Source of the DNA: Nemertoderma westbladi
Taxonomy: Eukaryota; Animalia; Xenacoelomorpha
NCBI GenBank assembly: GCA_032718475.1
Contig: JAUCBJ010008890.1
Coordinates: forward strand, 124,001 to 188,000
Direction: 5' to 3'
Length of the DNA: 64,000 bases
In this document: piece by piece, positions 4,310 to 30,491 of the stretch
Position numbering within the stretch: the stretch's first letter is position 1
How the letters are laid out: each line of letters begins with the position of its first letter
Translations under genes and position numbers: made by a program
Notes under the pieces: generated by a model
What the model saw: the letters and a program-made list of their open reading frames with translations, nothing else
Told to the model about the DNA's origin: nothing
The model's database searches: none

Positions 4310-6675
4310 TTTTTTTTTTTTATTTATTTAAAACATTCAGTTTAATTTTAAAGAATAAAATATAAACAGGGGGAACACCACCTAGGTACAAATACCTAAT
4401 TAGAAGTTATAATTAGATATATAAAATTACACTTACAGGTGGATAAAATACACATTTAAGTAGAAGGGCAAAGGCAACAGATAGAGGGATAAACGCTAAA
4501 ATACAAACAACAACAATAAAACTACAAGAATGACCAACGAAATAAAACCAAGTAAACAGAGATTATATCATCAAGTAAAAAAAACATAATTTGTTTCGAA
4601 AGCCATTGATCCTTTTTATAAAAATGACAAAAATATTAAAAACTATTTGGTAGATTAAATATAAATAAAAACAAATAAAAAATATATGTGGTTAATTTAA
4701 AAATCTGTTAAAATGACAATATGGCAATAGATCAACATCTTTCAATTTATCAGTAAAAATATTTACATTTACAGAATTGACAATTTCTTCGGGTAAGGAA
4801 TTCCAAATATCTACAGTTCTGTTTGAAAAAGAGTTTTTTACAATTTGTAGACGGCAAAACGATTTGAAAAGCTTACGGTTATGGCCTCTATTTCTAATAT
4901 TGGTACTTAAAGTGAAAAAGTCATTACAATTTAGATCAACATCATTATTAAAAATACTATACACCATTTCTAAATCATAAATATGCCTACGTACTTCTAG
5001 AGGTTGTAGCTTAAGAAAATTAAGAAAATTAATTCTCTCCATGTAACTACGGCTGCCGAGGTTACAGCGCTTAAAAAGACGCCGGGTGAAGTAACGCTGA
5101 ACCCGTTCGATTAAATCAATACTACCTAACGTAAATGGAGAGCAAACGGCAGTACAATATTCTAGTAATGGTCTGGCATATGACTTATACGCTGTACAAA
5201 TGGCTTTCAGGTTACCGGTATAAAAACACTTAAATAAAATATTCACTACTCTATACGCCTTCTTTACTTGTTCACGGTAGTGAAGATCAAATTTCAAATC
5301 GTGATTCACAATTACACCAAGATCTCTACAAAAGTCATCATTTTTTATAAGGTTACCATTAAGAAAGTATTGCACAGGTGACACCTTTATACAAGTTGTA
5401 GATAAATGAACTACTGAACATTTGTGTGCAGCTATCTTGACCTGCCACTCATTTGCCCAAGTCTCTAGTGATTTGAGAGCTTCTGCCAATGAATGGATGT
5501 CTGATGATTTGCTGTACAACTTGAGATCGTCAGCGAATAAATTACAACAGGTGCCGGTACCTATAATATCAGGTAAATCATTAACATAGAGTAAAAATAA
5601 TAATGGCCCTAAAACGCTTCCTTGAATTGTACCTGATATAACTTTGCTTACTACAGAAATAGTATTACCAACCAAGACTTGTTGGGTACGATTACATAGA
5701 AAAGCACCAATCCACAATAACAAGTGACCCGAGATACCGTAGCTAGCAAGTTTAGCCAAAAGTTTACAGTGAACGACAGAATCAAACGCCTTGGCGAAAT
5801 CTATGTATATAACGTCTATAGAGCTGCGACTGTCAAGCAGCTTAAACCATTTATTAGTACTGTCAAGCAATTGAGTACAAGTACTGCGACGTTTCATAAA
5901 TCCATGTTGCGACTTACTAATAATATTATGCAACCTTAAGTACAATAATACATCATTTTTGATACATAACTCCATTATTTTACATGTTACACATGTAAGC
6001 GAAATGGGGCGGTAGTTATAGGGATTAGTGTGGCTGCCCTTCTTAAAGAGGGGGATAATGTTAGCAGTGAGCCATATAGAGGGTAAAGCGTGAGATTCAA
6101 ATGATACTTTAAATAAAATAGACAACGGAACAGATAAACATTTAGGTAGTTTCGCAAAAATAAAACTGGGAAAACCATCTGGAGTTTTTCCACATTTAGC
6201 CTTAATATTCTTAAGTACAGAATAAACAGCACCAGGGGAAAAATCTACAGTGGAAATGTGTACACCATTAGCTACTCTACGGTTAAAAATAGGCATTGAT
6301 TCATTATCCTTTGTAAAATTCTCAGAAAAAACTTCAGAAAATATATGTGCTTTAGTAGTGTCATCAATTATTACTTTGCCATTCATTTTAAACGCAGATA
6401 TACCCGATCTGACTTTACGTTTGCTATTAACATAAGTAAAAATAGCGTTAGGCTTGCCAGATGTTAATATTTTGTTTTCACGTGCACAAGCCACTCTAAA
6501 GATGCCTTTAGAAACGGCCTTGGCACATTTCTTATACTCCTCTTGGCCGTTTTCTGTGTGGCGACGACGCCATAACAATTTCTTTCGCTTTTGTAATTTC
6601 GTTATAAAGCGCGGATGTGATTTATTACTTGAAATTTTAGTGAAAGGTACAAATTTTTCGATACCGGATTTCACT
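4310..6675 (-). mobile_element. 5'-truncated CR1-type LINE
   Basis: Poly(A) tail (poly-T from 4310 on +), candidate 7-bp TSD GTAGTAC at 4303-4309 and 6676-6682, uninterrupted RT ORF. Confidence 0.85.
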
Positions 6676-6749
6676 GTAGTACTGTAGTACAGTACAGCAG
6701 TAGGCCTACTGAACAACAACAACGGTACTTCTGTACTACATGTCTGCAT
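4692..6749 (-). CDS. Non-LTR (CR1/L2 group) reverse transcriptase lacking the APE domain
   Basis: NYRPISLT, QHGF, IDFAKAFDSV, QGSVLGPLLF, FADD, RDLGV, RPLLEY, WNSLP motifs; first ~25 aa derive from flanking DNA. Confidence 0.9.
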   Translation of the reverse strand: MQTCSTEVPLLLFSRPTAVLYYSTTVKSGIEKFVPFTKISSNKSHPRFITKLQKRKKLLWRRRHTENGQEEYKKCAKAVSKGIFRVACARENKILTSGKPNAIFTYVNSKRKVRSGISAFKMNGKVIIDDTTKAHIFSEVFSENFTKDNESMPIFNRRVANGVHISTVDFSPGAVYSVLKNIKAKCGKTPDGFPSFIFAKLPKCLSVPLSILFKVSFESHALPSIWLTANIIPLFKKGSHTNPYNYRPISLTCVTCKIMELCIKNDVLLYLRLHNIISKSQHGFMKRRSTCTQLLDSTNKWFKLLDSRSSIDVIYIDFAKAFDSVVHCKLLAKLASYGISGHLLLWIGAFLCNRTQQVLVGNTISVVSKVISGTIQGSVLGPLLFLLYVNDLPDIIGTGTCCNLFADDLKLYSKSSDIHSLAEALKSLETWANEWQVKIAAHKCSVVHLSTTCIKVSPVQYFLNGNLIKNDDFCRDLGVIVNHDLKFDLHYREQVKKAYRVVNILFKCFYTGNLKAICTAYKSYARPLLEYCTAVCSPFTLGSIDLIERVQRYFTRRLFKRCNLGSRSYMERINFLNFLKLQPLEVRRHIYDLEMVYSIFNNDVDLNCNDFFTLSTNIRNRGHNRKLFKSFCRLQIVKNSFSNRTVDIWNSLPEEIVNSVNVNIFTDKLKDVDLLPYCHFNRFLN

Positions 6750-6906: not shown

Positions 6907-7416
6907 ATGACGCGAGTTGGCGGGGACTACGTCCTCGGTAGTACGACCGAATCGACGCTCGTTAAAACTGCCGGCGATTACGTTCCCCGCTACGCATCCC
7001 GAGCGGACCCTCGGGGACTGGTACTGAAACCCGCGCTGGACCCCTACGCAAAGTACGACCCGCAAACCCTGAAGGAAATCCTTGCGTACAAAGCCAAGAT
7101 CCGGGAGCGATACAAATTGGAGTTCCAGAAGCAACGGACTGAGGTGTTCCTGGGGCTTCGACGAATTGTTTCCGACCCCGCACACATCCGACACACCATG
7201 GCGTTCTACGGACGGGAAGATCTTGTACCAAAGTTCAGTTTACGGATGTTCGCCGGTCTGTTCTTGGGTATATTTCTCCCGGTATTTGTCCTGAAATACG
7301 CCCTGCAGAACAGCGTGAAGGAACGCGCGGGTTTCGTACAGACTTACTCTCTTTTCGGGGGTTGGTTGACCCCCAAACAGAGACAATTAGCCATGGATAA
7401 TTTACAGCGGAAATGA
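6907..7416 (+). CDS. NDUFB4: NADH:ubiquinone oxidoreductase B15/NDUFB4-like subunit (intronless, divergent)
   Basis: GC-rich 169-aa ORF; LDP..Y, KAKIRERYKLEFQKQ, IVSDPAHIRH, single C-terminal hydrophobic helix then YALQNSVKER parallels the recalled NDUFB4 pattern (LDP.EY, RxxIRxxLKREY, IENPALLRW, TM helix). Confidence 0.6.
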   Translation: MTRVGGDYVLGSTTESTLVKTAGDYVPRYASRADPRGLVLKPALDPYAKYDPQTLKEILAYKAKIRERYKLEFQKQRTEVFLGLRRIVSDPAHIRHTMAFYGREDLVPKFSLRMFAGLFLGIFLPVFVLKYALQNSVKERAGFVQTYSLFGGWLTPKQRQLAMDNLQRK

Positions 7417-8176
7417 ATTCCGTTTAGTAAACAGTCGGATATATATTCTTCTAATTATATTTACACGATAGGCCTATTAGTTCCGTAGTTAGTGCATTTT
7501 GGATTATTAAGTCCTTAACAACGGGTATTGCTATTTTTACTTTCTTGTTTCTTACTATTAATAATTACCTCGCTAACGTTACTCTACCATTCTTACGTAG
7601 TTAATCCAAGTAAAGTATTCGGAAACTCCAAATTTATCTTACATTGCGAGTGGCGTCTTTAGTTGTTACAAACTTTTTATTCCTATTTTTACTTACTTTA
7701 TTACAGTATAGCTACTTTACGTTGACGTTACAGCGTTCCGTGCTGCCGTTAACATAAACTGAGTGATGTTAAGTTTATAAGTTGAGTTACGTTTACACAG
7801 TATTACCAGAACGCTTGTAAATAATGTTAGGATTAAATGCGTCATTGATTGTTTCTGCGTAATTATTTGCAATTTTATCGTGATATACACGAACAGTTGG
7901 ATAAATCATAATGTAATCCAACACAGCCCTAGTGTAGTAACACAACGTTAGTTACGATAACTTCACACCAAAACGAACAGACCCTTTCGCTTTCACCCAA
8001 CATTGTCTTAGTGTTACATGGAACTAGCATTGTCCATCGAAGTTTACAAAATATTCGATCTATTTTTCTGAAATTTTCGCGATTATTACCAATGTAAAAT
8101 ATTTTTTAATTATCTATTGAGTACCATACTATGAGAGGCCATATACTGGTATTTGGTCCGTGGACCAAATACCTTT

Positions 8177-8395
8177 GGGTAGGTGTAAAACGCGGTTCCG
8201 GGTCCGGATTCCAAAATTATCAATTAAAGGAAAGGAGCAGGTTACAGTGGCACGTTATTTTAAACAAAACAATAAACTAAAGTCAATAGAACAGGTTATA
8301 GTTATATTTTTGGGAGTTATAAAAATGTAAAAAAAATCGACTTCCGTAGGGACAATGTTAAATGTAGAATCCAGATCCGCGTTTTACTCTGACCC
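8177..8395. mobile_element. MITE, Mutator-like (9-bp TSD)
   Basis: Imperfect TIRs GGGTAGGTGTAAAACGCGG / CCGCGTTTTACTCTGACCC; AATACCTTT duplicated at 8168-8176 and 8396-8404. Confidence 0.8.
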
Positions 8396-9139
8396 AATAC
8401 CTTTTCGGGCAAAGGCTATTTATTTTAGCCTTTGCCCGATTGGCAAAGCCATTTAAAGGAGCAGGTTAGTAAAGAAGCAGGTTTCATTCAGAAGCGTGTT
8501 GGGGGGAACCAAAACAATTAACATTGAATTCTCTGCATTTACTTTATTCCAGTACCCCAGTCCACGGACCACAAGCCATCAATATAATGCCCTATAAGAA
8601 AGATTTTCATTGTAAAAAGAAGATAATAAATGTTTAATATTTCAAAAAAATTTATATGTGAAAAGTGGCACTTTACAGAGTGCTGTTAAGAGCGGTTTGT
8701 TGCATTAAGTTAAATAATGAATGGATTAAGAGAGTACTAATGCAGATATGAGTACCGTACGTATGTACCGTTGTATGTACCGTACGTATAGACTAATATA
8801 TTCATTGTAATATCATAATTAATACAGTATAGCATTAATATAGTAATTTGATTCGATAAAATCATGTATTGGAAAGATAATACGAACTATTCTTATTCTC
8901 TCTGACTCCTAAGTGTAATCCTTCAGCGACACCAAGAAGGGGTGGAATCATGGGGGCGCAACTCCTCTTAAAACAACCTTTTGGAACGTGCTAATTATAT
9001 AGGAAGACCATGCGGATCTTGGGACGACTATCATACGAATACCTATGTGCCGAATAATGGACAGTCTGAATAGCGTCCGCAGATTTATATATATCTATCT
9101 ATATGGCACGCCATTAATTGGTGGGGGTGGGGGGATCGC

Positions 9140-9420
9140 CATACATTCCGATATTAGATGATGATTTGATTTCAGTGAGCGGGAGCTCGCAGATACGGTG
9201 AGCAATCTTAAGATAAACAAGGGGTACATTGGTATATCGTTTAATTAATTTGTACCTAGCCAGTTGTGGTTTAAGTAAACTGGTTACTTTATTTAAGTCT
9301 GGTGAACGATCACTATGTAGTGACTACCGAGCTATATCCATTTTGGATACACTGGCCAAAGTGTATGATATGTTGCTAAATTCCAGACTGTTAGCAAGGT
9401 GCGCATTTGATAAATATGAA
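9140..9420 (+). pseudogene. Decayed non-LTR RT N-terminal fragment
   Basis: YIPILDD...LKINKGYIG then LVTLFKSG..CSDYRAISILDTLAKVYDMLLNSRL (RT domains 0-1). Confidence 0.7.
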
Positions 9421-9714
9421 AACAATAAAATAGGACATGGGGTCTTATTCCCTCAGATATTACCTAGTATTTAGGGCCACTTGGGCCACTGTTAGTACTC
9501 AGGCACTAGGCCCATCAAAAAACAAAATACCAAATCGATTTTAGTGCTACATAACCCAACCCAACTACCACAAGAAAAAGTACACCAAACCATACAGTAA
9601 CTATAGGTTCCGGTAAGTATTGCACGAAATAGGCTATCCCATAAATTACGAAAAATATAGGACATTTTGTCCGCCGAAAAGGTAAGTCTAAGTAATAAAT
9701 TTTATAAAAATAAA

Positions 9715-9783
9715 AGGGTTTCGGAGATTTAAACACTGAACCCTGGGATTCGTGGTTCTCCTCATCAGCAGTGTGCCACGAAC
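9715..9783 (-). ncRNA. Hammerhead ribozyme, non-circularly permuted strand order with extra helix
   Basis: UUCGUGG c ACACUG CUGAUGA GGAGA a CCACGAA uccc AGGGU U CAGUGU uuaaa UCUCC GAAA CCCU; perfect stem I (6 bp), II (5 bp), III (5 bp), extra 7-bp helix. Confidence 0.8.
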
Positions 9784-10063
9784 CCCACCCCTAACCTAAC
9801 AAAACTGACCACTAAATTAAGACAATGAATGACCAATAAATTAGAAATCCTACCGTACCACCGAACAGAGTTGAAACCACCCACCCCCAATGTATGTTAC
9901 CATCAGCCCCAATTGCATAAACATGATTCCCCACTGAATGCAACCAACTGATTTTTTTAAAAACTGATCATATATCTGTACATACCGGTAGGTGCTAAGG
10001 GAGATGCGAGGATACGTGGCCATTGACCCGGACATCCGTTACGTATTACGTCCGAATTACGTA

Positions 10064-10198
10064 TTACATGGGAAAAAAACGTAGAACATTTTTTTCCATA
10101 TTCTCTCGACTATTCTCTTTATTAACCTAGCTGACGCTCGGTAAATAAAATGCCTCCAGAATAATGAAAAAAAGTTCTACTTTTTGTTCCCACGTAAT
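10064..10198. mobile_element. Small inverted-repeat element (MITE-like)
   Basis: ATTACATGGGAAAAAAACGTAGAAC...TTTTTT pairs with AAAAAAAGTTCTAC...TTCCCACGTAAT. Confidence 0.6.
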
Positions 10199-10373
10199 AA
10201 ATAATTATTTGGTGGATAAACATAATAAACAATTATTTTAAATATTATTATAAAAAATATTTCATGGTGGTTTTTGTAGTTTAAGCGGCTTTCTGGTTAT
10301 GTAATAAATATTCGAGAACATTGAATTATTAGAGTTAAGCAACAAAAAGTAACAATCTAATAATAAAATTTTT

Positions 10374-10954
10374 CGAGTTAGAAAATAACCCAAATAACGA
10401 GTTAGAAAATAACCCAAATAACGAGTTAGAAAATAACCCAAATAACGAGTTAGAAAATAACCCAAATAACGAGTTAGAAAATAACCCAAATAACGAGTTA
10501 GAAAATAACCCAAATAACGAGTTAGAAAATAACCCTAAGTCAACCCAAATAACGAGTTAGAAAATAACCCCAAGTTGTAACCTAAATAACGAGTTAGAAA
10601 ATAACCCAAATAACGAGTTATAAAATAACCCCAAGTCAACCCAAATAACGAGTTAGAAGATAACCCCAAGTCAACCCAAATAACGAGTTAGAAAATAACC
10701 CCATGTCAACCCAAATAACGAGTTAGAAAATAACCCCAAGTCAACCCAAATAACGAGTTAGAAAATAACCCCGAGTCAACCCAAATAACGAGTTAGAAAA
10801 TAACCCCGAGTCAACCCAAATAACGAGTTAGAAAATAACCCCATGTCAACCCAAATAACGAGTTAGAAAATAACCCCGAGTCAACCCAAATAACGAGTTA
10901 GAAAATAACCCCATGTCAACCCAAATAACGAGTTAGAAAATAACCCCAAGTCAA
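10374..10954. repeat. Minisatellite, 24-bp unit grading into 35-bp unit
   Basis: AAATAACGAGTTAGAAAATAACCC, later copies carry an extra CAAGTCAACCC-type 11-mer. Confidence 0.95.
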
Positions 10955-12649
10955 ATTGACATAATATCAAAATAATAACAAAATTATTGTTTTGGAAAAA
11001 ATTATGGGGGTTTTATTATGTTCGGGATATATTTTGGGAATCTAATATTTTGCAAGAGAAATAGGGTGGCAGTTACAAAATCGGGTCTAGAAGATCCAAA
11101 TGGCAAATTTTTTACAAAACCAATACCCACGATTGTAGCCTTAAAGCTGCTGAATATTTTGGTATATGTTTGATGACAATTGTGCAAAAAATAAAAAAGT
11201 AGTGAATTAAGTAGGGAATTTAGTTATGAAAAAAGTGAAAATAGAAAACTTAGAAAAGGGTTGTTTTATTCAGAGATTCATGAATATCAGCTATTAATAC
11301 TGTTGTTGAAAAGTGCAGTTTTGTGGTCAAAATGGGCAGTTTTGTGGTCAAAATATCATTCAATTGTGAAAACCGATATCACCACATGTAAGCCCTTCTA
11401 GCAAACTACAAAAACAGATAACAGATGAATAAAACAGATTAAAGTTTTGTAAATTTTCGAAAATGTAACTTCCGTTGGGGGTAATGGTCCCCTTAATAAA
11501 CAATATAATAAAAAATGTGTTAACGATAGATAACTAACTAATTCCTAACTAACTAAGTCCGGGCTTGTGCGGGGCAGTGGCACCGCACAGGTTGAAAACT
11601 ATAAGTCAGTCTTTGTTCGTAATAAATATGGGCCTTTTCTGAGATTACTGCGGCAATGAAATCAACAACTAAACTACAATATCTAATTTATGATAAAATA
11701 TGTGTCTTGTGTTAGGAGAGTTAACTCTGGTTAATGTTTGTGCGAACTTATGTAGCTTTTGCCTGGCTACTAATCTCATTAAGTAGCAGCAGTGATGTGT
11801 GACTAATCGATATATTTAGTTTTCCCTTAACAAGACACTGGCACAATATTAAGGGTTCACCTATAGTGATTGACCCCTGTGCAATCTATGCACAATGGAT
11901 AAACAATATATAATAAGTTGACTCTATGACAATTTATAGATTGCGCAACACGTGATCTTGGCTGGTTTGGCCGTGAGGCCCTATGGCTACCTTAACTATT
12001 ATTAGGTCACAATCCCCTTATTGGTGGGTGATAATTATTCCCATTAAATGCTTCTGGAGTGGCGAAGTGTATATAAGGAAAATCCCGTAACACCTGGAAA
12101 CCGAACAGTTTATAAGGTAGGAGAACACAAGTAGAACAGAAGGAAAAACTCCTGAAAATGGTGAGAATAATAACAAGAAATAAATTTTAACAATAAAATG
12201 GTTACAATTGGTAATTTTAAATGTACTTTTAGTGCCCAGCTAAGAAAAACCGTAGTGAAACAGTAAAAAGGGGGAAAACACTCTTAAACTGATGGAAAAC
12301 AGAATACAGTGAAAACAGGTAAAACTGTCAAGTTAATGAAAAATAACAAATAAATAAAAAATTTCCTAAGAAAGTCTCACTACAAATTTTAATAATAACA
12401 ATATATCAACATCAAACAAAATCCTACACATGTATACTGTACATATACTTACTACATCCGATTGCCTTAAAACTAACTAATTATTCTCCATTCGAAACGT
12501 CTGTAACCCAACATGGCTACACTGTCATACAAAATATACAACAATATCAGCCGGTCTACTTGTGTGGTTATAATTGAGAAAAAGCACATTGAAACTTAAG
12601 ATATGGTGCAGATTGTAGTCATGATGTGACAAAAAGATGCATAATAATG

Positions 12650-12850
12650 GTTATGTGGGGCGAGCCACGCAATAAAAGGGAGCCTTAGCGCACAATTATA
12701 ATTAGAAAATATGGCAAAATTTCATGTCCGTCTTTCTGTCTGTCTCTGTCCGTCCGTCTGTAATGAAAAATTCATTCGTAAATAACTTTTGAAGATTTTA
12801 ACCATTTTCAACAAATTTTGTATGGGCATACTAGAGAAAAAGATCCAAGA
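12650..12850 (+). mobile_element. DINE-1/Helentron-like non-autonomous element 5' module (fragment)
   Basis: GC hairpin (GTGG..CCAC), (GTCY)n microsatellite, then AATAACTTTTGAA...ATTTTCAACAAATTT block typical of such elements. Confidence 0.45.
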
Positions 12851-12959
12851 GAAAACACGCAACATCTTTATTAATCAAAAATCACTAAAAAAAAACCCAC
12901 CACCAGAACAACCAATCAAATGCAGTATAAATAACAGACAGACATACAGACAATTAAAA

Positions 12960-14345
12960 TTTGACGTGGGAAATTTAAACTGTAAAACATATCGTCCAAC
13001 CTATAGACCTACAACTACACCCAACCAACCGACCAGCCACCTGGCTACGGCTGTGAAGGTAGGCCGGCCCCATCCTCCAGTCCCAGGCCGCTGCGCCACT
13101 TGGTGCGAGACCCGCACAGGCAGTGGGAGGTCCCACGGACAACCGCAAACAGCACTCGCGAGCGTACCCAACCCATGACAGACGAGTAAGGCTTACCCCA
13201 TGAGCGGTGCAATCTGTCCGTGATTATCCGCAGGAATTTGTTCGCCTGTGGGGTCAACACACCATCGCAGGAACCACGAAAGGCGAGAAGTCTCCATGAC
13301 GAGCGGTTACTGCGGCTAAATAAAGCTGTTTCTTCTCGTCTTCCACGGATTCCAACACGGACATGGATGCGCGGTTTACGTACGACCCAGTGTCAAGATT
13401 GGTTGATCGAATATCAAACAACGCCTGAGTCTGTATGTTAAACACGCCCCGCACCCCCACGTCACACCGCAGCCCAGCCACGTCTCCCCACTCCAGCTGC
13501 TCCCGCACAACGGGCTCCAACGTGACGTTGCGTGGCCCAAACGCGAGCGCAGCGAGGTCGCCAACGGTGTCCTGCAACTCGTTGTGACGTTGGATCACGA
13601 GGCCGCCCTTCTTGCAGTTCAACCCATGGCTCAGGTCGAACGCGGCCCCGCACCCGTCACAACGGCTCGGCACTCCCAGGAGGGGTCTACCGTACCGCAC
13701 TGCCAGACCGTCACGGAACTCCTGTGGAGACATGTCGTAATGGTGTTCAGTCAGTGGGAGAGTCGACGTCCAGCTGGCGGTTTTAAACTCGACAGCTCTC
13801 TGGATAGTCTGCTGACGCCTCTCCGACATCCTCTCAAGGGCATCCTCGAACTCCCCCACCTCCACCGTTTTCCGCTCGTCCCACTCCGCCTTCCGAGCCA
13901 ATGCCAGGCACTCCTTGTGGGCCGCCATATCAAACGCAGCCTCACCCACCATCGCCTTACCGAGGAACTAAGAAGGATTGGTTGGCCTCGGCAACCGGGT
14001 TATGTAAACCCAGGCTGCCTCTCTGCGGGGACAACGCGAATAGTTGGCGCTCCGACGGGGAGACACTACCACCAAGGATGGCGGGGAGGAAACGTTGGGC
14101 AAGGGCTTCTTCCAACCCAGTAAACTCGGGGGCGCAGTCTGGCGTAACGCACTGGAGGTAGGCCCACTCACGTTGCAAGGAGCAGATCAATGCCGAGAAC
14201 GCCGCCTGTGGCTGGGCCTCGGCCATCTCCGCCATCTTATCCACAGCGTCCACCCACGCCGCCACCTTAGCACCTACGAACTGACATCTCCCACCTGCGT
14301 CGCCAAGAAAACCTCCTAGGAACCGGTGGCCAGAGACTATCTTCA
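12960..14345 (-). mobile_element. CRE-clade non-LTR retrotransposon, 3' part (RT thumb, CCHC knuckle, REL endonuclease), frameshifted
   Basis: RFLGGFLG, RGSLGL, CDGCGAAFDLSHGLNC, RHN, RCDV..G, FDIR, EKKQLY, FSPFVV, WGKPYSSVMGWVRSR in ORFs 13957-14520, 13254-13952, 13045-13260. Confidence 0.85.
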
Positions 14346-15733
14346 CAGTAAACTTTATAGAAGTAAAAGTGTCTGAGTCTGTACTCCCAGATATTCCCAT
14401 TGGCGATATCTCCTTTGCAGAAGTGAAGGCTGCTGCAAAGAGCATTAAGACCAATCGTGCCAGTGGAGTAGATGGTGTTCCCCCTGAGGTCTTTAAAATA
14501 CCTGAGTGTTTAAAGCTCATCTATCCCATCATAGTAGACATGTACCGAACAACAAGAGTCCCACAAGAAATGAAAACAAATAAGTTGGTGCCAGTTCCCA
14601 AGAAGGGCAACCTAACACTCTATGGTTCTTTTCGGGGAATCTAAATGATCTCGATTGCTGCAAAGCTATACAATAGGATTCTATTAAATCGCATCAGGGA
14701 TCCCATTGAGAGACTGCTCCGTGGAAATCAGAATGGGTTCCGTAAAGGTCGTGGGACCATGGAGCCCATTTTGGCACTTAGAAAGATAATTGAAGAGTTA
14801 TCAAAAAAGAAAGACAGGCATCTGGCTGTTATCTTTGTTGACTTCTTCAAGGCCTTTGATTCAGTCTCTCGCTCACGTATGTTCAGCATACTTCCATTAT
14901 ATGGGATTCCTGATGAAATTATTGCAGCAATCAGATCAGTATACGATGGTTCGACAACATTTGTGTCTACTGTTGACGGTGACACAGAACCATTTGAGGT
15001 GTTATGGGGCGTCCTCCAAGGAGACACACTTGCACCATTCTTGTGCATTATTGTGGTTGACTATGTTCTACGCATGTCCTTAGATCATTATAATGATGAT
15101 GGGGTGATGATAACTCCACCTACTGGCTCCAGAAGTCGAGGAAATCCTGCCAAGTACCTAACTGATCTAGACTTTGCTGATGACTTAGGAGTACTCTCAG
15201 AATCATTAGAGGGAGCCCAACGGCTCCTCAGCTCATTAGAACATGCTGCTTCTAGTGTTGGTCTTTTTAATAACTCCAGAAAGACCAAAATTCTGACAGT
15301 TAACTTTGAAAGTCCTCAGCAAGTCTCTGATCGGATGAGCATAAGCTCAAAGGATGGTATGCTTGAGCATGTGGACGACTTCTGTTACCTGGGATCATGG
15401 ATCCGGAAGTCAGGTGAGGACCTTCGAATACGTAAGGGAAAGGCATGGGCAGCCTTGAATAGGCTTTCCAGGATTTGGAAGTCACCGATAATTAATCGGA
15501 AACTTAAGGTCCGATTATTTAGAGCAGCAGTAGTTCCAGTACTCCTCTACGGGAGTCCATGCTGGGCTCTAACTGCTGAGGACACCAAATCTCTGGATGG
15601 CACATTCACAAGAATGCTACGCCGGGTTCATTGTGTCAAGTACAATGCACACATCTCCAACCAGACACTATATAACATTGGAGGTGTCTCATTGGTTCCC
15701 CCAAGCTTGACACTAGAACAAAATAGAACAAAA
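14346..15733 (+). pseudogene. RTE-type LINE reverse transcriptase fragment
   Basis: ASGVDGVPPE, PVPKKG, QNGFRKGR, DFFKAFDSV, GVLQGDTLAPFL, LDFADD, FCYLGS, LLYGS; in-frame stop at 14642-14644; truncated at both ends. Confidence 0.9.
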
Positions 15734-16760
15734 CTAGAACAAGGCACAGACAGAGGGACACACAACGTGGATTGGGCGGCACGCGACACATACTGGGGGG
15801 CACTTGTCACATACTGGGGGGCACCCGACATATACTGGGGGGCACCCGACACATACTGGGGGCACCTGACACATACTGGGGGGCACCCGACACATACTGG
15901 GTGGCGTCCAGCTGGCGGGAACCCAATATAGATAGGGGAGCACCCGACACAGGTAGGGGGAAGCACGACATGGATTGGGGGGCAATCAATACGGGCTGGG
16001 GAGCACCTGACTCAGACAGGGGGGAGCCTGGCACAGACTGGGAGACACCCGGTTCAGATATGGGGACACCCATCGCAGACTGGGGAGAGCCCGACTCGGA
16101 TTCCATGAGGTAGTCGAGTTCATCCAGAGTTCAGTTTATTTGTGGTGTCTCACTTGGTGCCTGGACCCTGCCCTTTTTCGTTGTTGTAGCCTGGCTCGTC
16201 CGCGGCGAGTTGGTTAACATGTAGTCAAGTACGACGTGGCCCACAGACCCGCTGTAACCGGGAGGCATCACGATGGGAACGGATTCTGAGGCTGTGTGAA
16301 ACGGGGTCGCTGTCCTATTGGGTAGCTGAAAGATGATGAAGCCAGGGTTATGAAGCCGGGGAGATGAAGCCAGGGTTATATCATGGTCTACCAGGGTCTC
16401 GTCGCCATCTTCTCCTGTTGATGATGTGGCAGTCGGTTGGGATGCACTGCTGTTTTTGGAAGGCGATATGTCACGCGAAGTGCCGGAGACGACTGGCTGC
16501 GAACTGACAGCTCCCAGTGCGTTACAACAACGCCCACTCGCCATCGGAGCACAGGAGGCGCATGGCAATCCCGACCTCGCACACGAACAACGAACGCAGC
16601 GACCAGATCTAGGGTTGCAACCACAGCAAGCAGGCATCGCGACAGACGGATACTCCAAGAGGGAGAGAGAGAGAAGGATCGGACAAACTTGCTATTAAAC
16701 CAGACACAGGCAGAATTGTATTAGGCAAGTTAGAACTCGTACAGTCCCGTCAGTACGTCA
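15734..16760 (-). mobile_element. CRE-clade element 5' part with Cys-rich N-terminus
   Basis: CCGCNPRSGRCVRCSCARSGLPCASCAP..GRCCN resembles N-termini of metazoan CRE ORFs; same strand and GC level as the 3' part; 5' boundary approximate. Confidence 0.6.
15786..16100. repeat. 21-bp tandem repeat (PQYVSGA heptads on - strand), decaying rightwards
   Basis: GACACATACTGGGGGGCACCC repeats. Confidence 0.85.
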
Positions 16761-17541: not shown

Positions 17542-18780
17542 TTATTCCTTATATCTTCTTATAAATATGTTGCGATTAACTGCCTTTCGGAAATTTCCAA
17601 CAAATATATGCATGAGATAAAAGTTTAGACTGAAGACAATACCAAACATATTAGATATATGACCTGCAATATATTGGATAACTAACATTTTTTCATAAGC
17701 AGAAATTTCATCCATTGTAGATAAAGGATGTAGATTTCCTGATATATTCACAAGAATAGTTCTTATAATGTGCCAGATTATACGGGCACAATCTTTTGCA
17801 CACATTAGTGTTCCAGTAACGAGCATCATATTTACAGCGGCAGATATTCTATGATTGGCTGGTGGATTTGGGTTAGCCCTCATTAGCTTTCTTAACTTAT
17901 AAATTAAGAGACCGTTTATAGCAAATACTCCTACAATTTGAATAGATTTTCTTATAGGAATGAAATAGTCCAGAAACTGATACGCCCTAATGAAGTGGAC
18001 ATTATATGAACCCCAATACATATATAAAGCCCAATATTGCTTTTCGCCATTTACATATCGAATCTCACCCTTATACATAACTACATAAGGCCAGTACAGA
18101 CACGCTGTGTAAATAAATATAACTACAATAATCCCATATATCATGTTATTATTCTTTAATTTTGTATCCTTATACCATACCGGGAAATAAAGGGCTGCAA
18201 TACGCTCTGCGCCCATAATTAAGGTGAGTGTAGAATCTCCATATTGTACACACCCTACAAATATCGGCCAATAACACTGGCATAACCATGAAACAACGTT
18301 ATAACAATGAAGTTTCCAAATTGTATTGTTGTTTACTATCAATGAATCATATTCAAAATAGAACCATTCCGAATTATGACCACATTGCAGCAGTTGGCCA
18401 AACGAGATAAGAATATCGAAAACAGACTTTAACACCAACATTCTATAAAATAGAGTACTGAATGATTTCTCCATTGCAATTGTTACAATAATTAATATAT
18501 TTCCAATCAGACCAAATAAATTATATGTTGATATATATGGCGTTAGAATAAAATGGGAAATGAAATCGCCAGCGTTGAGATAAAACTCATATCCTTGCAA
18601 TATCTCTTCATAATCAGATTGGAGAATAGTTTTATAAAACTTGTGGTACAGATTTGATTCGGTTGTGTTACTTGTGTTCCCATTAACTATTGGGTTGATA
18701 CCATCGGTAGCATCAGAAACAAAGACAAAAATACAAGTAAAATACAATAACAATTGAATGAGAAAGTTTGTTACAAACAT
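17542..18780 (-). CDS. Intronless rhodopsin-like (class A) GPCR, peptide-receptor/chemoreceptor-like
   Basis: Signal peptide, N-glycosylation sequons, GLIGNILII (TM1), VFD (TM2), ERIAALYFP (DRY-equivalent), SLNFYL (TM7), FRKAV helix 8. Confidence 0.85.
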   Translation of the reverse strand: MFVTNFLIQLLLYFTCIFVFVSDATDGINPIVNGNTSNTTESNLYHKFYKTILQSDYEEILQGYEFYLNAGDFISHFILTPYISTYNLFGLIGNILIIVTIAMEKSFSTLFYRMLVLKSVFDILISFGQLLQCGHNSEWFYFEYDSLIVNNNTIWKLHCYNVVSWLCQCYWPIFVGCVQYGDSTLTLIMGAERIAALYFPVWYKDTKLKNNNMIYGIIVVIFIYTACLYWPYVVMYKGEIRYVNGEKQYWALYMYWGSYNVHFIRAYQFLDYFIPIRKSIQIVGVFAINGLLIYKLRKLMRANPNPPANHRISAAVNMMLVTGTLMCAKDCARIIWHIIRTILVNISGNLHPLSTMDEISAYEKMLVIQYIAGHISNMFGIVFSLNFYLMHIFVGNFRKAVNRNIFIRRYKE

Positions 18781-19042: not shown

Positions 19043-19418
19043 GCAATTGTATGGGGCGCCGTGGGCTTCAAAAATATTAAAATGTCGGCGACTGGTTCAG
19101 ATTCTCGGCGACTGGTTTAGATTCTCGGCGACTGGTTTAGATTTCGGCCTAGATTTCGGCCAAGATTTCGGCTTAGATTTCGGCCAAGATTTCGGCTTAG
19201 ATTTCGGCCAAGATTTCGGCTTAGATTTCGGCCAAGATTTCGGCTTAGATTTCGGCCAAGATTCTAAGCCGAAATCTTGGCCGAAATCTAGGCAAAAATC
19301 TAAACCAGTCGCCGAGAATCTAAACCAGTCGCCGAGAATCTGAACCAGTCGCCGAGAATATGAACCAGTCGCCGACATTTTGATATTTTTTGAAGCCCAC
19401 GGCGCCCCATACAATTGC
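19043..19418. mobile_element. Palindromic foldback/MITE with internal 21-bp and 24-bp tandem repeats
   Basis: GCAATTGTATGGGGCGCCGTGGGCTTCAAAAA at left, reverse complement at right; arms extend to centre ~19262. Confidence 0.85.
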
Positions 19419-20351: not shown

Positions 20352-21034
20352 TGTGACGGGATCCTAAGATCCCGACCGGGTTAGATTTGTACGCGTCACC
20401 GTTCTGCTGGGCAGTTATGCACTGAGTCGCTTTGGCCGAAGGCCGTCGGGGAAAATAATAGAGTTTCTGTTTCTCGATGTTGATACTCAGAGCGATAATA
20501 GCACAATCGGTAAATCGGTAGATCAGTAATGATCACGACATATAATGAGCAGCAGAATACACAGATATTAAATTGCTGATGTTGGTGGCGGTGACGGTCA
20601 TAAACTATGACTGGTCTGCAACTGAGTAACTAATGAACTGACCGGTAAATCAGTAATGCAGAATAATATATGATTAACACACTCGGATATTGATTTCACC
20701 TCTTGCTGTACTTGGCCCTCTGTACCCAGTGGATGCTTTCCTATCTCTAACCACGTGCTTCCCTCCCCGCTATTGGCTAATACATTAATTGTCACTTTGG
20801 CACTCCCTGTGAGTGTTTCCCCCCGCTGCACTGGTAGCCTCTACTAGCTGTATCTCCCTCCGAGGTGGTTTGACCCTCCCTCTCTGTGGCTTTAGGGCTT
20901 GTGTCGCCCCCCCCCCCCCAATGTTGGTTATGAGACGAGATTAATATTGGTAATTTCGTATCCCCAACTTATTGGTGAAATGCCACTGGTCCCATTTTCT
21001 GGTGGGTAATGAAGTAGAATTGAACCCACTTACA
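20352..21034 (-). repeat. 3' LTR (683 bp)
   Basis: TGTGAC...CTTACA, homologous to 30492-31167; preceded on - strand by a G-run polypurine tract at 21035-21043. Confidence 0.95.
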
Positions 21035-22153
21035 CTCCCCCCCATGCTATCTTCCCGGTGAGAAGATAGCATCAACCTTAAGTGCGCTTCAATTCCGCTG
21101 GAACCCAATCTAATATCGGGTGTGGGGTGGAGTTCTTTTCTCGGGGTCGGCTTCCCTGACCGCCCCCCCTGGGTATGTTATTACTACCCCTCCTTGGTGC
21201 AATTGCGAGCTATGCTGCACCAAGGTATCTGGCGTCTCTGTTCGAGACAATTGTGCTCTCTCTTCACACAATTTTCTACGTCCTCGCTCTAATCTCACTC
21301 TCGGAAATCTCTGTCACTTACTCTCTCTCTCACAGACCTCATTGTCCCTTTGTCTCTCTCTTACTGCTCATTGCCCACACTTGAATTGCACTCCTCTCAC
21401 TCCCTCACGTGTCAACACATCCTCTCCGTACTTCCCCCAATTCCCCATTTTCGTTTTCATTCTCAATATACTTGATTACGTCCCACGCATGTGCGCATCA
21501 TGTTAGTGGGGTCCGTCTAAGTCTCGTCCTGCCATTCTAGTCAATTAGTCCCCTAACTTTATTTTATTATTTTTTTTTGTTCCCCCCTGTCTGTGCTATT
21601 ATCGTATCTACCTTCCTACTTACTTACGTGGCGCCCTCAGTGCCCACAACTTCTAACTCTTATGGTACTACGTATCCTACTACTACTCCTATGGTATACC
21701 TATATACCATACCCCCTACTCTCTTACTATGTGGTGCTCTCGCTGCCCACAACTTCTGACTCCCACGGTACTATGTACCCCGACTACTACTCTCATGGTA
21801 TGTCTATATACCACACTCCATACTTCTCTAACTTCTAACTCTCCTCTTACTCTTACTAACTTCTAACTAGCTTTCTAACTTCGTTACTTCTGTACTAACT
21901 GCTTACTAACTCTCGTAACTAACTTTCTAACTTCTTACTTCTTACTAACTCTTACTAACTTCTAACTAACTTTCTAATTTTCTTACTTCCTTACTAACTG
22001 CTTACGTAACTTCTACACTAACTTTCTAACTTTCAAATATCTCGCTTCTTATTTTTATTATTTGCTTATTATTTTTTTTTATATTTTTATGTGGGAAGGG
22101 CGTCTCACCCTCATTCCCACCCCCCTTAGTCCAACATATTGGACGACTAAACT

Positions 22154-23457
22154 CTAAGGTGCCCCTTCCAATACGCAGAACTTTCCCACAGCCCTCCTGT
22201 AGGTCTTCCTATCTTTGGCTCCTATCTTGCCTCCTATCCTCACTTCCACCGACCGGACTCTTCCGTCCTCGTCGGGGTAAGTATCTACCACCCTCGCTAG
22301 TCTCCATTGGTTATTGATAATTGTGTCGTCAGTGACGATTACCCAGTCACCCTTCTTCAACTCCCTATTGGTGTTTCTCCACTTACTTCTCCTATGCAAC
22401 ATCGTAAGATATTCTTCTACCCATCTCCTCAAATACTCCGCACTTATTGCCTTGGCGACTTTCCAGCTTTGATGGGAATGTATGTCATCTGGGTCCACTC
22501 CCCGCATGTCGATTGTCGCCGGCCTCTCCATTAGAAAATGTCCTGGTGTTAGCACATCCAGTGATTCCGGGTCGTCATTCTCTGGATATAGCGGTCTGCT
22601 ATTAATGATTCCCTCGCAATTGGCTAGCACCGTTCTTAATATATCCTCTGTGACCATGTGGTTGTTCATCAACTTGGTCATTAAACGTTTGGAACTTCCG
22701 ACAAGTCTCTCTACACACCCTAACGTATGTGGCGCATACGACATTCTCCTTTCCCACTTTACTTGCTGTTTACTCATAGCCGCCCTGACATCTTCTCCCT
22801 CTAGGATGTCGAAGGCCTCGGCCAACTTGTTCTCCGCTCCCACGAAGTTGGTCCCGTTATCCGAATATATCACCTTGAGCGTTCCCCCTTTGCAGCTTAC
22901 AAACCTTTCTAAGGCATTAATAAATGCCGATGCCGTAGCGTCCTGCGCAAGTTCTATTCCCACCGCTCTTGTGTTGTTGCAGACAAAGATAATGCCGTAG
23001 CATTTCTCCATGTTCCGCATAACCTTTATCTTAATCGGCCCGAACATGTCCACGCCGCAGTGCGTGAATGGCGGGTCGTGTTGTCTCACTCTGTTGGCCG
23101 GTAATGGCGCCATCTCTTGTACGGCCCTCTCCTTTCTCGTCCGTCTGCAGGTCTGGCACACTTCCCCACTACCGCCTTCACCTTCTTCCTAAGTTGGGTG
23201 ATCCAGAATGTCCTTCGTATCTCCGTGAGGGTCTGATTTGTGCCTCCGTGTAGTATCGATTTATGTGAGTCCCATATAATCTGGTGGACTATTGGTGATT
23301 TATTGGGGATTATTATGGGTTTTGGTGGGATAATTAAGCTGTTGTTGTTCACCACTCTGGAATTCATCACCAGAATCCTGTCATCGTTCAACTGCGGGGA
23401 CAGTGTGTTGAGTTCGCTGTCTCGACGAAGGTGTTGTTGCTCGCTGACTCTATCCAC
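22154..23457 (-). pseudogene. BEL/Pao integrase (frameshifted)
   Basis: H..H.G, C..C, PPFTHCGVDMFGP, SDNGTNFVGA, ERLVG, INSRPL, LTPGHFL, W.LARV...PD.DGRVRSV. Confidence 0.92.
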
Positions 23458-23592
23458 TTCGTCGGCGTATTCCTTTCTTTGCTCATACAGTATTATGGCT
23501 TTAGCCGCTCCTTCCAGATCGATGGTTGGTTTCCTTTTGGCATCCTTGCCAACTCCCCTAAGGAAATCCCCGTAGGCCCTCCAATATGCTAC

Positions 23593-26200
23593 CTACTTCT
23601 GAGTCTTATACCAGCTGGAGCTGTAACTGCGCAACCTGTCCGTCGGATTTTCGCATGGTTCTTCTGATTTCGGTGGCACTTCCTTGATCTCCTTCACCAA
23701 CTGGCTGTATATCTCTTCCCCTACTGAAACCTCCCCCTCCTCTTCTGCTACTACCTCCTCTGAGCCCAGGTCCACCTTCCTCATTGGTGGCCAGGCTGAC
23801 CTATCGCTCAGGAAGTGTGGCCCGCGCTGCCACAACTCTTCCTTCTTTGAGAAAGTGTGGCGTGCAACGCCCCTCGATAATAGATCTGCTGGATTGTCGT
23901 CGGTAAGCCAATAATGCCACCTTTCTAGGTCAGTCGTCGCCCTTATCTCGTCTACCCTATTCGCGACGAATATAGGGTATCTCGTCTTCTCATTATGTAG
24001 CCACCCTAGCACTACCATGGAGTCCATCCAGTAGTGTGTCTCCACTATGTTGGGTATAGTGTCCATCAAGTAAGCTGTGGCCCTTACTCCTAACCTCGCA
24101 GCTGTCAGCTCGAGTTTCGGCACTGACGCTGAATCTGGTGGCGTCCACTTCGCTTTACTAAATGCAAGTCTGGGCTTATGAGCCCCCTTTCGCTGTACCA
24201 AATAAAGCGCCGCTCCATATGCTTCCAAGGATGCATTGGAAAACATGTGTAGATCCAGGTCCATCATGTCTCCGTCCGGGAAATACACGTGTGGTATGCT
24301 GTACGTCCCCATCTCCTCTAGACTTCCCGTCCACTTACTCCACTGTCTACTTATTTCTTCCGGGACCTCCGTAGTCCGTATCCCACTCATCCTTTAACTT
24401 GTATACTTTCTTTAGTATTTGCTTCCCCGTGACTAACAATGGGGATGCTAGGCCTAGGGGATCGTATATCCTTGCTATGTACAATACATAGCCCCGCTTA
24501 GTGTGGATCTCTGCACCCTCTTGGCTCAGTTGATACTCCAACTCGTCCGTCTCCCGGTTCCACACGATCCCTAGCGCCTTTTGCTGAGACTCAACTCTCT
24601 TGTTTGCCATATCCTGTCCCTTTGCTGTTGTGGGGTTGTCCATGGTCGACTCTGGTCACTTGTCTTCTATGGCTTTCATGAATTTGTCGGAGCTGGACTG
24701 GAACTTAGTGAGGTTGAACCCGGATCCTTTTAGGATGTCGCGAACCTCGCGCCCTATCTCCAGTATTTCTTCAACCGTGTTTCCAGATCCCATTCCATCA
24801 TCGACATAGAAACTGCATCGAATCATGTCGATCGCCTTCGCACTATACTCTCCTTCCTTGCCCTCTAACGTATCTCTCACAGCCATAGTTGTTGTAAATG
24901 AGGACGACTTGGCCCCCATGTTTTGCACCACCATTTTGTACATCGGTATCTCAGACGGTTCTTCATCGCCGTTGTACCATAGGAAGCGCTGACTGTCGCT
25001 GTCCTCTTCCGTCACATGGACATGGTTGAACATGCCTTCAATGTCGCACATGAAGGCGGCCTCCCATTTCTGAATCTCAACAGGACCTCTATCCCCGAGT
25101 TGTAGATGTTGGGGCCCTCTAGCAGATAGTTGTTCATGCTTTTGCCATTCGATTTGGCCGACGCGTCAACCACCATCCGCAGTTTACCCTTCTTTGGATC
25201 TAAAGCCACGTGCAGTGGCAGATAGTAGGTTCTGTCTGTGTTTGGCTCGTCGACCGGTAACTCAACGGCCCATCCCTTCTCAACGTACTTCCTGATTGTC
25301 TTATGGATGTACTCGTCCTTCTCGGGGCTCCGTCTGAGCATCTGTTTCAGTTTGCGAAGCCTCGTGAGTACCATCCCTTTGTTATCCGGTAACGGTATCT
25401 TTGGTTGTTTCCACACCATTCCTATGGTGTACCATCCCACTTCGCACTTCATCGATTCCTTTACGCTCTCTATAGCTTGTTTATCTTCTACCGAGGTTCC
25501 GACCCCGGCCTCCTTTAGTCCTTCGAAGTCCTGCTTCAACAGCCTCTTAAGCTGCTCCTCTGCTCCTTCATCCTCCATCTCCCTCATTGTCCCTGCGAAC
25601 ATGCACCCTGATGTCTCCAACACCCTGAATGGAATTTTGGCTTTAATTGGGCCGCTAAGCATCCATCCGAACGGCGTGAGAATCGCCATCTGATCGCGCT
25701 GCCTGTTCTCTCCGAATATGGTCCGTACTCTCTCGTGGGCCGTCGGACAATCCATTCCCACTATGATGGATACCTTCGAGATGTCCACTTCCGATATTGA
25801 TAAATCGATATCGTCCAGGAACCGGTATTGCTCGACCTCGATCCTAGTGGGTCGCCTGGCATTTATATTAATCGATTCTATTATTTGAATGGGGTCGATG
25901 GTCGCCCCATAATCATATCCTGGTGCTATTGCTGATATCTCGCACCGTCCCGTTCTCATCTCCAGGACCTCATCCTTGCTCGAGATGGTAGTTACCGCCA
26001 TCCTACTCGGCCTCGTCTGTAACCCTATCTCCTCGGCCACCCAATTCTCCACCAGCATGAAGGCTGCTCCTCTGTCGACCAGCATCAGTGTCGTGACTGA
26101 TCAGCCACTTTCTCCTATCACCCTCACTGGTACCACCCCGAGTAATACCGTTCCCCTTCTCTTCGCTCCTATGGTGCTTGTCGCCATCGTTTGACCTTTG
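23593..26200 (-). pseudogene. BEL/Pao protease, RT and RNase H (fragmented)
   Basis: LVDRGA, KLRMVVDAS, DIEGMF, YVDD, YDPLGL, FSNAS, PKLEL, DSMVVL, NPADLLSRG; several stops and frameshifts. Confidence 0.92.
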
Positions 26201-26209
26201 CCTTGACCG

Positions 26210-27396
26210 AATCTTATTGGCGTCTCCTCACACTGTTCAACTTTATGTCCGCCTACCACACATCAATGACAGATTCCACTTCTGTCCGCATATTCTACCT
26301 GATCTTGTTTGGGCAATGCCTGCCAATACTTGCAGTTCATAGTCTGATGGAGTGCATTCGAGTGTAATTGGCATTTGTTTCTCGGATTATAGCCTTCTCT
26401 ATACAGCACATTGCGTATTGCACGTATATTTATACTTAGCTGTCTAGTGTTCTTATTGTTTGGGTTTGGCCTACTGGGCGTGTTGGGGTTATATTTGTTC
26501 GTGTTATTATTTTGTCCCTGTTCATGCCACGGTGTGGCCCTACCCCCGGCTATCTGTGGACTTGCAGTCCCCTGCGTCGCCGCATATGGTAGCGACTGTC
26601 TTAACTTTAGTAACACATTTGCCGCACTATGTTCTGGTTTCAGTCTGTTGTATTCGGTCCTCGGCGCCCTCCCCAGACTATCCTCGCTGTAGACTGGGTC
26701 CGTGATTAGTTCTGCCTTGTAATTGAGGAAGTTCGACATTTCCTCTAGGCCCGGTTCCGCACCTTTCTTCTCCCGGGTGGAGAAGGCGATCTTCCTCCAC
26801 TTATTTCGTAGCCAGATCGGCAGTGCCTGCGCTATTGTGGTGATGTTATTCGATGCGTTGAGTTCATAAGGCGCATCCAAGGTCTTCAGCACAATCGAAA
26901 CACAATCAGCGCCTTTTCGACTTTATTCATGAAAGTCTTGATGCTGACAGGGTTATCTTGTAGTCCACCTGATGTTATTCCCCTCAAGGTTTGCCGGATG
27001 ATCTTGGCAGGGTGTCTGAATTCCCTGTCTAGGGCCCGCCATGCAGTCGTGAATCCGCCCTCGATACCTTGGTACTGCCTTACGATGTCTTGTTTGTCAT
27101 GTCGATTTGAACGGCTCCACTGGTGGCAGCTCGATCCTGGTCTTAAGCGCATCGATGAGTGTCGCCATTCCCATTGCCTGTACTTCTAGTGCACTCGACA
27201 GATGCTGTACAGATTCCCCTGCTACTGGGTGCGGTTCACCCGTAGGGCCTGTCGACCTCCTTTGCGTCGGATATATCATTGGGGGTAACAGTCCCCTCCA
27301 TATCTCTGTATCACACGATCTATTTTGGTCCGAGGGGTTTGGGGGTTTTGTTCTTGGTTGAGTATATTGCTGATATTGTAATGGGGGAATGTCACC

Positions 27397-27427
<31 letters not shown>

Positions 27428-27759
27428 ACCGGTGCTATATTTGGTATTGGGGTTGATGTTACCATGTTAGGGCCTAAACATCTATCGGCAATAGCTCCCC
27501 CCTCCCCTGGGTATATGTTATATCCCTGCATATTATAGTCATACTGGTGTGCAGGTACCGGTATAGCCCTATCCACGTCTTGCCTACCTGCTGGTATGTA
27601 TGCCGCGACTTCCGGATCTAATGCCGTTGTCCTCACTACCCTATCGCCTACACTATCTCTTTCAGCATGGCCTATAGTATGTGTAGTAAGGCCTACAGTA
27701 TGTCCTGCAGTCTGCCTGTGTCCTTCCGTACTGAAGTTTAATCTTCTCGAATATTCCAA
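26210..27759 (-). pseudogene. BEL/Pao Gag (fragmented)
   Basis: AWRALDREF, LPIWLRNKW, C..H....H....C and further Cys/His knuckle remnants. Confidence 0.75.
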
Positions 27760-27807
27760 GAAGTCCTCCCCGCGACTACCGTACTCTCGATCGGCAGCTA
27801 TATCCCA

Positions 27808-30450: not shown

Positions 30451-30481
30451 TCTTGGCAGTCACAGTTTGTTGTAGCTGGTG

Positions 30482-30491
30482 AGTTTATGAC
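30482..30491 (-). promoter_or_regulatory. Candidate self-priming PBS GTCATAAACT
   Basis: Abuts the 5' LTR with no gap; exact complement AGTTTATGAC (- strand) inside both LTRs at 30730-30739 and 20597-20606; no TGG tRNA PBS. Confidence 0.55.

Follow-up and report, generated by a model that had tools for sequence, protein, structure and literature searches.

The window analyzed here, a 64,000-nucleotide stretch of one Nemertoderma westbladi contig (JAUCBJ010008890.1), is animal DNA, with LINE-type reverse transcriptases, a Pao-type element, a GPCR-like open reading frame (ORF), and a 37-bp satellite. The two LINE-type reverse transcriptase ORFs lie at 4692-6749 and 14645-15931; the first has thousands of relatives, with up to ~45% identity, and the only species-named one among the 120 listed relatives of the LINE protein is from a nematode, at 38% identity. 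A fragmented Pao-type LTR retrotransposon with direct repeats ~10.1 kb apart occupies 20448-30962 on the minus strand. The GPCR-like ORF (17542-18780) is intronless, encodes 412 amino acids with a weak Srsx match, and has no relatives in the protein collection. An ORF at 61355-63997 encodes about seven Thr/Ser-rich repeats of 51 amino acids followed by an NHL-like region, and its relatives were likewise not found in the protein collection. The satellite (36451-59915) consists of ~606 copies with 91% matches, extends over 23.5 kb, and has a strong strand skew. Two elements resemble foldback elements or DNA transposons (19043-19418 and 31609-33476): one ends in perfect 32-bp terminal inverted repeats and has repeats of 12 and 20 bp inside, and the other has 255-bp arms at 95%. 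The unit of a minisatellite at 10374-10954 shifts from 24 bp to 35 bp.

At 9715-9786, the minus strand carries a hammerhead ribozyme motif within a high-copy interspersed repeat (Table 1). A first-pass annotation of this DNA had quoted the minus-strand sequence and described a hammerhead with every element present; the quoted sequence is correct and the elements are complete. Stems I, II, and III contain 6 of 6, 5 of 5 (the first pair being G-C), and 5 of 5 Watson-Crick pairs, respectively, or 16 of 16 together, with 9744-9740 and 9719-9715 forming stem III. All three stems adjoin the core, which contains CUGAnGA, GAAA (9722-9719), an NUH site, G10.1-C11.1, and A15.1-U16.1. The strand order was annotated as CUGAUGA strand, cleavage strand, GAAA strand, belonging to none of types I to III, and the coordinates give the same order (blocks C-S-G), which departs from the circular orders C-G-S, S-C-G, and G-S-C and from the pseudoknot-free core of those types. 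The cleavage nucleotide U17 is at 9739, so that the cut is predicted between 9739 and 9738, after GUU, and the earlier prediction of this site agrees with the pairing coordinates. The site was placed by analogy with the published ribozymes CSG-1 and CSG-2, for which product sizes matched a prediction of the same style.

Table 1. Coordinates of the ribozyme motif, its parts, and the repeat that carries it
Feature	Position	Strand	Basis or remark
Type-CSG hammerhead ribozyme motif, whole	9715..9786	minus	Sequence, pairing, chance estimate, layout as in CSG-1/CSG-2
Bridging helix, 5' strand (joins stems I and II)	9776..9786	minus	11 bp with 9755-9745; pair probabilities 1.0
Bridging helix, 3' strand	9745..9755	minus	Abuts stem III, spacer 0 nt
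Stem I, 5' strand	9769..9774	minus	Pairs with 9738-9733
Block C core strand CUGAUGA	9762..9768	minus	Sequence and pairing coordinates
Stem II, 5' strand, first nucleotide G10.1	9757..9761	minus	Pairs with 9727-9723
Block S: stem III 5' strand and cleavage triplet GUU	9739..9744	minus	Predicted cut 9739/9738
Stem I, 3' strand; predicted 5' end of 3' product	9733..9738	minus	Pairing
Linker UUAAA, 5 nt, from stem I to stem II	9728..9732	minus	Letters as in published CSG-2
Block G: stem II 3' strand, GAAA, and stem III 3' strand	9715..9727	minus	Pairing
High-copy interspersed repeat with ribozyme	9417..9948	minus	Fixed end near 9417 is the 3' end on the ribozyme strand; boundary +/- ~10 bases
Segment in opposite orientation in other contigs, likely 5' inversion of the window copy	9955..9998	plus	Loose contig ends

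A further helix and a 5-nt linker had been annotated as tying stems I and II together. The linker is present, and the bridging helix exists and joins the two stems but is 11 to 12 bp long rather than the 7 bp first assigned to it. Its 11 bp include one G-U pair and form the longest inverted repeat in 9300-10100; an optional 12th pair, U9787-A9744, competes with stem III. Since the helix runs to 9745, the bridge and stem III are contiguous. All core nucleotides and the four paired helices are directly established, and the motif is almost certainly a hammerhead fold of the type known as CSG.

A loose descriptor of this layout (helices of 4, 4, and 4 bp, G-U pairs allowed, and gaps of up to 60) has a single match on both strands of the 64 kb, which is the ribozyme itself (9786-9715); second-order Markov sequence, 12 Mb in total, has no match. 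Calculated analytically, the observed helices would arise by chance 1.4e-7 times per window if the bridge is ignored and 4e-9 times if 7 bp of it are counted. An Rfam scan of the window returned nothing at the gathering score, and the Rfam hammerhead models gave no match in 9300-10100 up to an E value of 10; at low stringency, Rfam returned two chance matches (E values of 2.2 and 9.6). Standard hammerhead models therefore miss this ribozyme, as the first-pass annotation had anticipated. A single match to CTGATGA followed by GAAA within 30 bases, elsewhere in the window, is at chance level and was rejected as a type I to III hammerhead. Fixed-spacing CSG pattern scans gave 0 matches in viral contigs, 5 in metagenome contigs, and 8 in prokaryotic genomes, and all 13 were rejected as noise because their helices fail. 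The pattern demanded a TTAAW linker, so that Naiad-type linkers (see below) would escape it; the scanned collections hold little animal DNA, and the published CSG-1 and CSG-2 contigs are absent from the matches.

Nested folding gives stem III a probability of only ~0.4, because a G run at 9791-9788 can pair with the 3' strand of stem II. The z-score of nested folding is -1.4 for the ribozyme region and -0.04 and 0.24 for its flanks, values that are uninformative because the RNA is pseudoknotted. Most other copies of the repeat differ at 9790, which would weaken the rival fold of the G run, and the window copy may therefore cut less well than its family. The ribozyme family is likely to self-cleave.

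The repeat was characterized with contigs of four DNA runs (X1 to X4) from the same organism, representing three samples and three studies, which were compared over 7000-12500. Run X2 matches the unique flanks with 0 differences and could be where the window comes from, which leaves two studies. The summed depth of X1 to X3 is 8,700 to 59,000 in bins over 9392-9943 versus 20 to 43 in the unique-flank bins of 8840-9391; summed depth is no copy number, and a copy count in the hundreds or higher can fairly be read from it. The repeat nature of this segment, its one fixed end, and its several variable ends are observed directly. At the fixed end, the unique contigs break off at 9439-9441, pieces from other loci have their start or end at 9417 and 9420, and a joint leads into 9418. 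The variable ends, among the listed pieces, are at 9602 (X1 record 3), 9735 (X2 record 10 and X3 record 17), and 9948. The 9735 end has single-copy depth, is ~10% diverged, lies 3 bases from the predicted cut, and probably represents one locus. Summed depth drops stepwise from bin 9392-9575 to bin 9760-9943 in three of the four runs. In record 26 of X4, which covers 9523-9822, 9 letters differ from the window and 5 are gaps. The best-supported differences between the window copy and the bulk of the family, at 9468, 9604, and 9790, are all outside the helices, and none of the 40 differences listed (560 further rows exist) falls in 9715-9787.

The letters of loose ends at 9948, 9955, and 9998 equal the reverse complement of 9990-9998 and 9933-9948 (one to three contigs per loose end; the 9-mer has three matches in the window and the 16-mer one). 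The loose ends thus spell the opposite strand of the neighboring sequence, which places 9955-9998 in reversed orientation in other contigs, and they suggest that the repeat family extends upstream of the part in the window. Neither a second copy nor a tandem or direct repeat of the unit is present in the window, which has a single ribozyme, and no target-site duplication of at least 7 bases was found at the candidate ends. The repeat has no poly(A) tail, no AATAAA on the ribozyme strand, and no terminal inverted repeats. These signs of polarity, drawn from few contigs among the listed pieces of more than 22,000, agree with one another and suggest that the minus strand acts like the sense strand of a retrocopy whose 3' end lies near 9417 and whose 5' end is truncated and partly inverted. 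A mobile RNA or a retroelement terminus had been proposed for the ribozyme from the start, and the ribozyme does lie in an apparent retroelement end, whose 3' side is fixed and whose 5' side varies and seems to include an inversion, a pattern shared with Penelope-like retrocopies. We infer that the minus strand corresponds to the RNA of the element.

Other repeats surround this one. A MITE-like palindrome of ~150 bp (10055-10206) with very high summed depth adjoins the ribozyme repeat yet is separate from it. At 8104-8471, a repeat with many junctions reaches the highest summed depth found in the region, up to 499,000, and a joint from 8297 to 9418 in two runs suggests that the ribozyme repeat is inserted into this repeat elsewhere. 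In run X4, the depth over 7000-9400 ranges from 0 to ~2,000 or more where other runs are single copy, unlike a plain genomic library.

The closest animal counterparts of this arrangement are in Naiads, a group of Penelope-like elements that Craig 2021 (PMC8557442) describes as lacking canonical hammerheads. Some Naiads are nevertheless tagged there as "HHR_core" or "HHR_half_core", the latter with a second half 35 to 50 nt away; the corresponding spacing in the window ribozyme is 39 nt. Naiad insertions are also described as often truncated at the 5' end and accompanied by a neighboring inverted piece; partial tandems (pLTR) and a tail of 30-40 bp are further traits of the group. Of the 54 families in that study, 10 (8 nematode and 2 chelicerate) had their 3' ends inspected. 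By eye, a complete CSG layout is present on the sense strand, downstream of the ORF in the 3' untranslated region, in all eight nematode consensus sequences (Table 2), and in neither of the two chelicerate 3' ends (Naiad_Lpol and Naiad_Ptep). A non-nematode Naiad end in the supplement of the same study has GAAAC upstream of CUGACGA, an order other than CSG. The distance of the nematode ribozymes from the 3' end ranges from tens of bases to a few hundred, with a stem I-II linker of 2 to 5 nt, a bridge of 9 to 17 bp, and, in five of eight, a junction of 0 to 1 nt between bridge and stem III, as in the window copy. Four of the eight are labeled core or half-core in the paper and four are not.

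Table 2. Base pairs counted by eye in the CSG layouts of nematode Naiad consensus sequences, with their labels in Craig 2021
Naiad	Stem I/II/III/bridge	Remark
Ppac	6/5/12/11	Name inferred from file order; unlabeled in paper
Parc	6/5/12/11	Labeled half-core
Nbra-1	5/5/11/12	Unlabeled in paper
Nbra-2	5/5/6/12	Labeled core
Nbra-3	5/4/6/9	Labeled half-core
Hcon	6/5/11/15	Unlabeled in paper
Hpol	5/5/9/17	GUU triplet; labeled half-core
Asuum	6/5/11 of 12/10	Extra U before stem II; unlabeled in paper

The nematode Naiads and the window repeat have in common a CSG hammerhead, read by eye in the former, and a few contigs suggest for the window repeat the 5' truncation and partial inversion that are described for Naiad insertions. 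The nematode Naiads carry the Naiad ORF (N-terminal GIY-YIG endonuclease, CxC motif, and C-terminal reverse transcriptase), whereas neither this ORF nor a Penelope-type reverse transcriptase was seen in the window in a Pfam scan of 19 of the 37 ORFs or, by eye, in the ORFs of 8900-16700. This absence is as expected for a truncated 3' end. The likeness and the element class are drawn from ribozyme layout and polarity. The reverse transcriptase genes at 4692-6749 and 14645-15931 are LINE-like and were rejected as partners of the repeat. From these sequence features, mobilization of the repeat by Penelope/Naiad machinery appears likely.

The best explanation, which we consider probable, is that a type-CSG motif predicted to self-cut after the GUU at 9739 sits in a high-copy repeat that is likely the 3' end, truncated on its 5' side, of a Penelope-like retroelement of the Naiad type or of a non-coding derivative of one. 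During transcription, the 11-bp bridge would close first around block C and keep stems I and II joined at their outer ends; the three core stems would then form as crossing helices once blocks S and G emerge, giving an ordinary hammerhead active site. Hammerhead cleavage proceeds by attack of a 2'-OH and yields a 2',3'-cyclic phosphate and a 5'-OH. The predicted products would thus carry the cyclic phosphate on 9739 and the 5'-OH on 9738. The C-S-G order puts all three stems (16 bp) across the cut, whereas in types I to III only one stem joins the two products, and the CSG products should therefore stay bound and religate or circularize readily.

In the element's life cycle, cleavage at the terminal repeat would trim RNAs transcribed in tandem or by read-through, and transcript processing is the role hypothesized for the hammerheads of other Penelope-like elements in Craig 2021 (PMC8557442). 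The element's reverse transcriptase-endonuclease, provided by a different locus, would start at the 3' end of the RNA and copy it into new sites, and the copying would often halt early or flip the last piece, as seems to have happened in the window copy. RNA that is uncut or resealed would insert with the whole ribozyme, again as in the window copy, and cut RNA would give copies that start at 9738. For a canonical Penelope element, cleavage is described as dispensable for in vitro insertion, as requiring the element's protein, and as showing no RNA-seq read ends (PMC11167929).

Several other readings can be weighed against this one. The repeat may instead be a stand-alone retrozyme, that is, a non-coding RNA cut from tandem transcripts, circularized, and reinserted by a Penelope-type protein, with a CSG ribozyme replacing type I. 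The segment 9417-9998 contains no ORF of at least 100 amino acids, one other copy terminates 3 bases from the predicted cut, and animal non-LTR retrozymes, as described in bioRxiv 10.64898/2026.07.22.740005, are 51 to 972 bp long and related to Penelope-like terminal repeats. The window, however, has a single ribozyme of type CSG rather than type I, with no tandem or direct repeat of the unit, and the loose ends suggest a family that continues beyond the window's portion, which together make this reading unlikely. Most of its steps are also those of the best explanation, and the sole point of difference is the nature of the full element.

It is rather improbable that a real ribozyme is carried here by some other repeat unconnected to Naiads, such as a Helitron, a MITE, or the tail of a SINE or LINE. 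The region is full of repeats, including the MITE-like palindrome and the LINE-type reverse transcriptase genes, and LINE-driven copies also typically show 5' truncation and inversion. Against such a carrier, poly(A), AATAAA on the ribozyme strand, target-site duplication, and terminal inverted repeats were all unfound, and Naiads are the only animal elements in which the CSG layout could be read.

The fold could also be inherited but idle in the window copy or the whole family, as a passenger, through misfolding, or because it is too slow to matter. The competing pairing at 9791-9788 would fit, as would the low published CSG rates (PMC10085705), the eight of nine predicted frog retrozyme dimers that did not cleave (bioRxiv 10.64898/2026.07.22.740005), and the option, raised in Craig 2021 (PMC8557442), that hammerheads may simply parasitize these elements. 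The window copy nevertheless retains its core letters and all core-helix pairs, and the CSG layout is intact in eight divergent Naiads with differing helix sequences, which points to selection on structure; an idle ribozyme is accordingly very unlikely. Chance resemblance, in favor of which nothing was found, is negligible given an expectation of at most 1.4e-7 per window, the absence of matches in 12 Mb of random sequence, and the failing helices of all 13 matches in the prokaryotic and metagenome collections, which serve as a gauge of chance.

The novelty lies in the host, the probable element, and the helix covariation, with type CSG now in an animal genome and in a high-copy repeat; the fold itself is known. 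A literature search, with most subscription journals outside its scope, gave no report of type CSG in animals or in Naiads, PMC13725137 included. The window copy and the eight Naiad ends provide about nine divergent CSG examples that keep the four helices, together with a biological home for the type. Craig 2021 (PMC8557442) treats the absence of canonical hammerheads as a distinguishing trait of Naiads and uses it to question a ribozyme role in Penelope-type transposition. If Naiads carry scrambled hammerheads, as the inspected 3' ends suggest, this argument reverses, and, if true, the role of the ribozyme becomes testable by comparing insertion ends and RNA ends with the cut site. Searches limited to types I to III would also undercount ribozymes in animal genomes.

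A broader reading can be put forward tentatively, at somewhat short of an even chance. Type CSG would be the standard ribozyme of a whole animal retroelement branch, comprising the nematode-type Naiads and non-coding derivatives, with hundreds to thousands of copies per genome, and the soil-derived CSG-1 and CSG-2 would be fragments of these elements, from soil animals. It would have been overlooked because every search assumed circular permutations, and its wiring, with the cut spanned by each of the three core stems, would make it nick and reseal, or circularize, instead of merely cutting.

Among known systems, the nearest are the non-circularly permuted hammerheads of Eckert 2023 (PMC10085705), which recognizes three hammerhead blocks (C, G, and S) and describes three non-circular orders. 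The first-pass annotation had left open, pending a literature check, that the fold might be new; it is already published there as type CSG, and the window copy, on sequence comparison, is a divergent member. The published type comprises two unique sequences, five in all, from soil metagenome DNA, with no host or element assigned. Both CSG-1 and CSG-2 cleave at the predicted site, with kobs values of 0.004 and 0.026 per min, and the authors regard the evidence for biological relevance as weaker for CSG than for type SGC (PMC10085705).

CSG-1, CSG-2, and the window ribozyme have in common the C, S, G order with uninterrupted blocks, the lengths of stems I to III, a helix that connects stems I and II at their distal ends, a short stem I-II linker, and identical single nucleotides flanking the bridge, and CSG-2 also has the same 5-nt linker. 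They differ in the cleavage triplet, which is GUC in CSG-1 and CSG-2 and GUU in the window ribozyme, and in the bridge, which has 8 bp and a 2-nt spacer to stem III in the published sequences but 11 to 12 bp and no spacer in the window. The settings also differ, being soil metagenome DNA for the former and a high-copy repeat of an animal genome for the latter. Of 23 aligned pairs (6 + 5 + 5 plus 7 inner bridge pairs), 13 are changed on both sides relative to CSG-1 and 13 relative to CSG-2, and 0 are broken, as counted by eye on the published alignment; the eighth bridge pair, U-G in the published sequences, is replaced by an opposed C and A in the window ribozyme.

Type SGC (HRIMA-1 and variants) of Eckert 2023 (PMC10085705) is likewise non-circularly permuted, its stems I and II being connected by a helix and a short linker, and mutants showed that the helix equivalent to the bridge is required. 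It differs in block order and in its occurrence, with 583 metatranscriptome sequences tied to hairpin-ribozyme circular RNAs. The type I hammerheads of canonical Penelope-like elements and non-LTR retrozymes resemble the window ribozyme, on its probable assignment, in being terminal-repeat hammerheads of Penelope-type elements or their non-coding derivatives in animal genomes, but they have the circular order C-G-S, are often in tandem, and keep only stem I joining the products after cleavage (bioRxiv 10.64898/2026.07.22.740005; PMC11167929).
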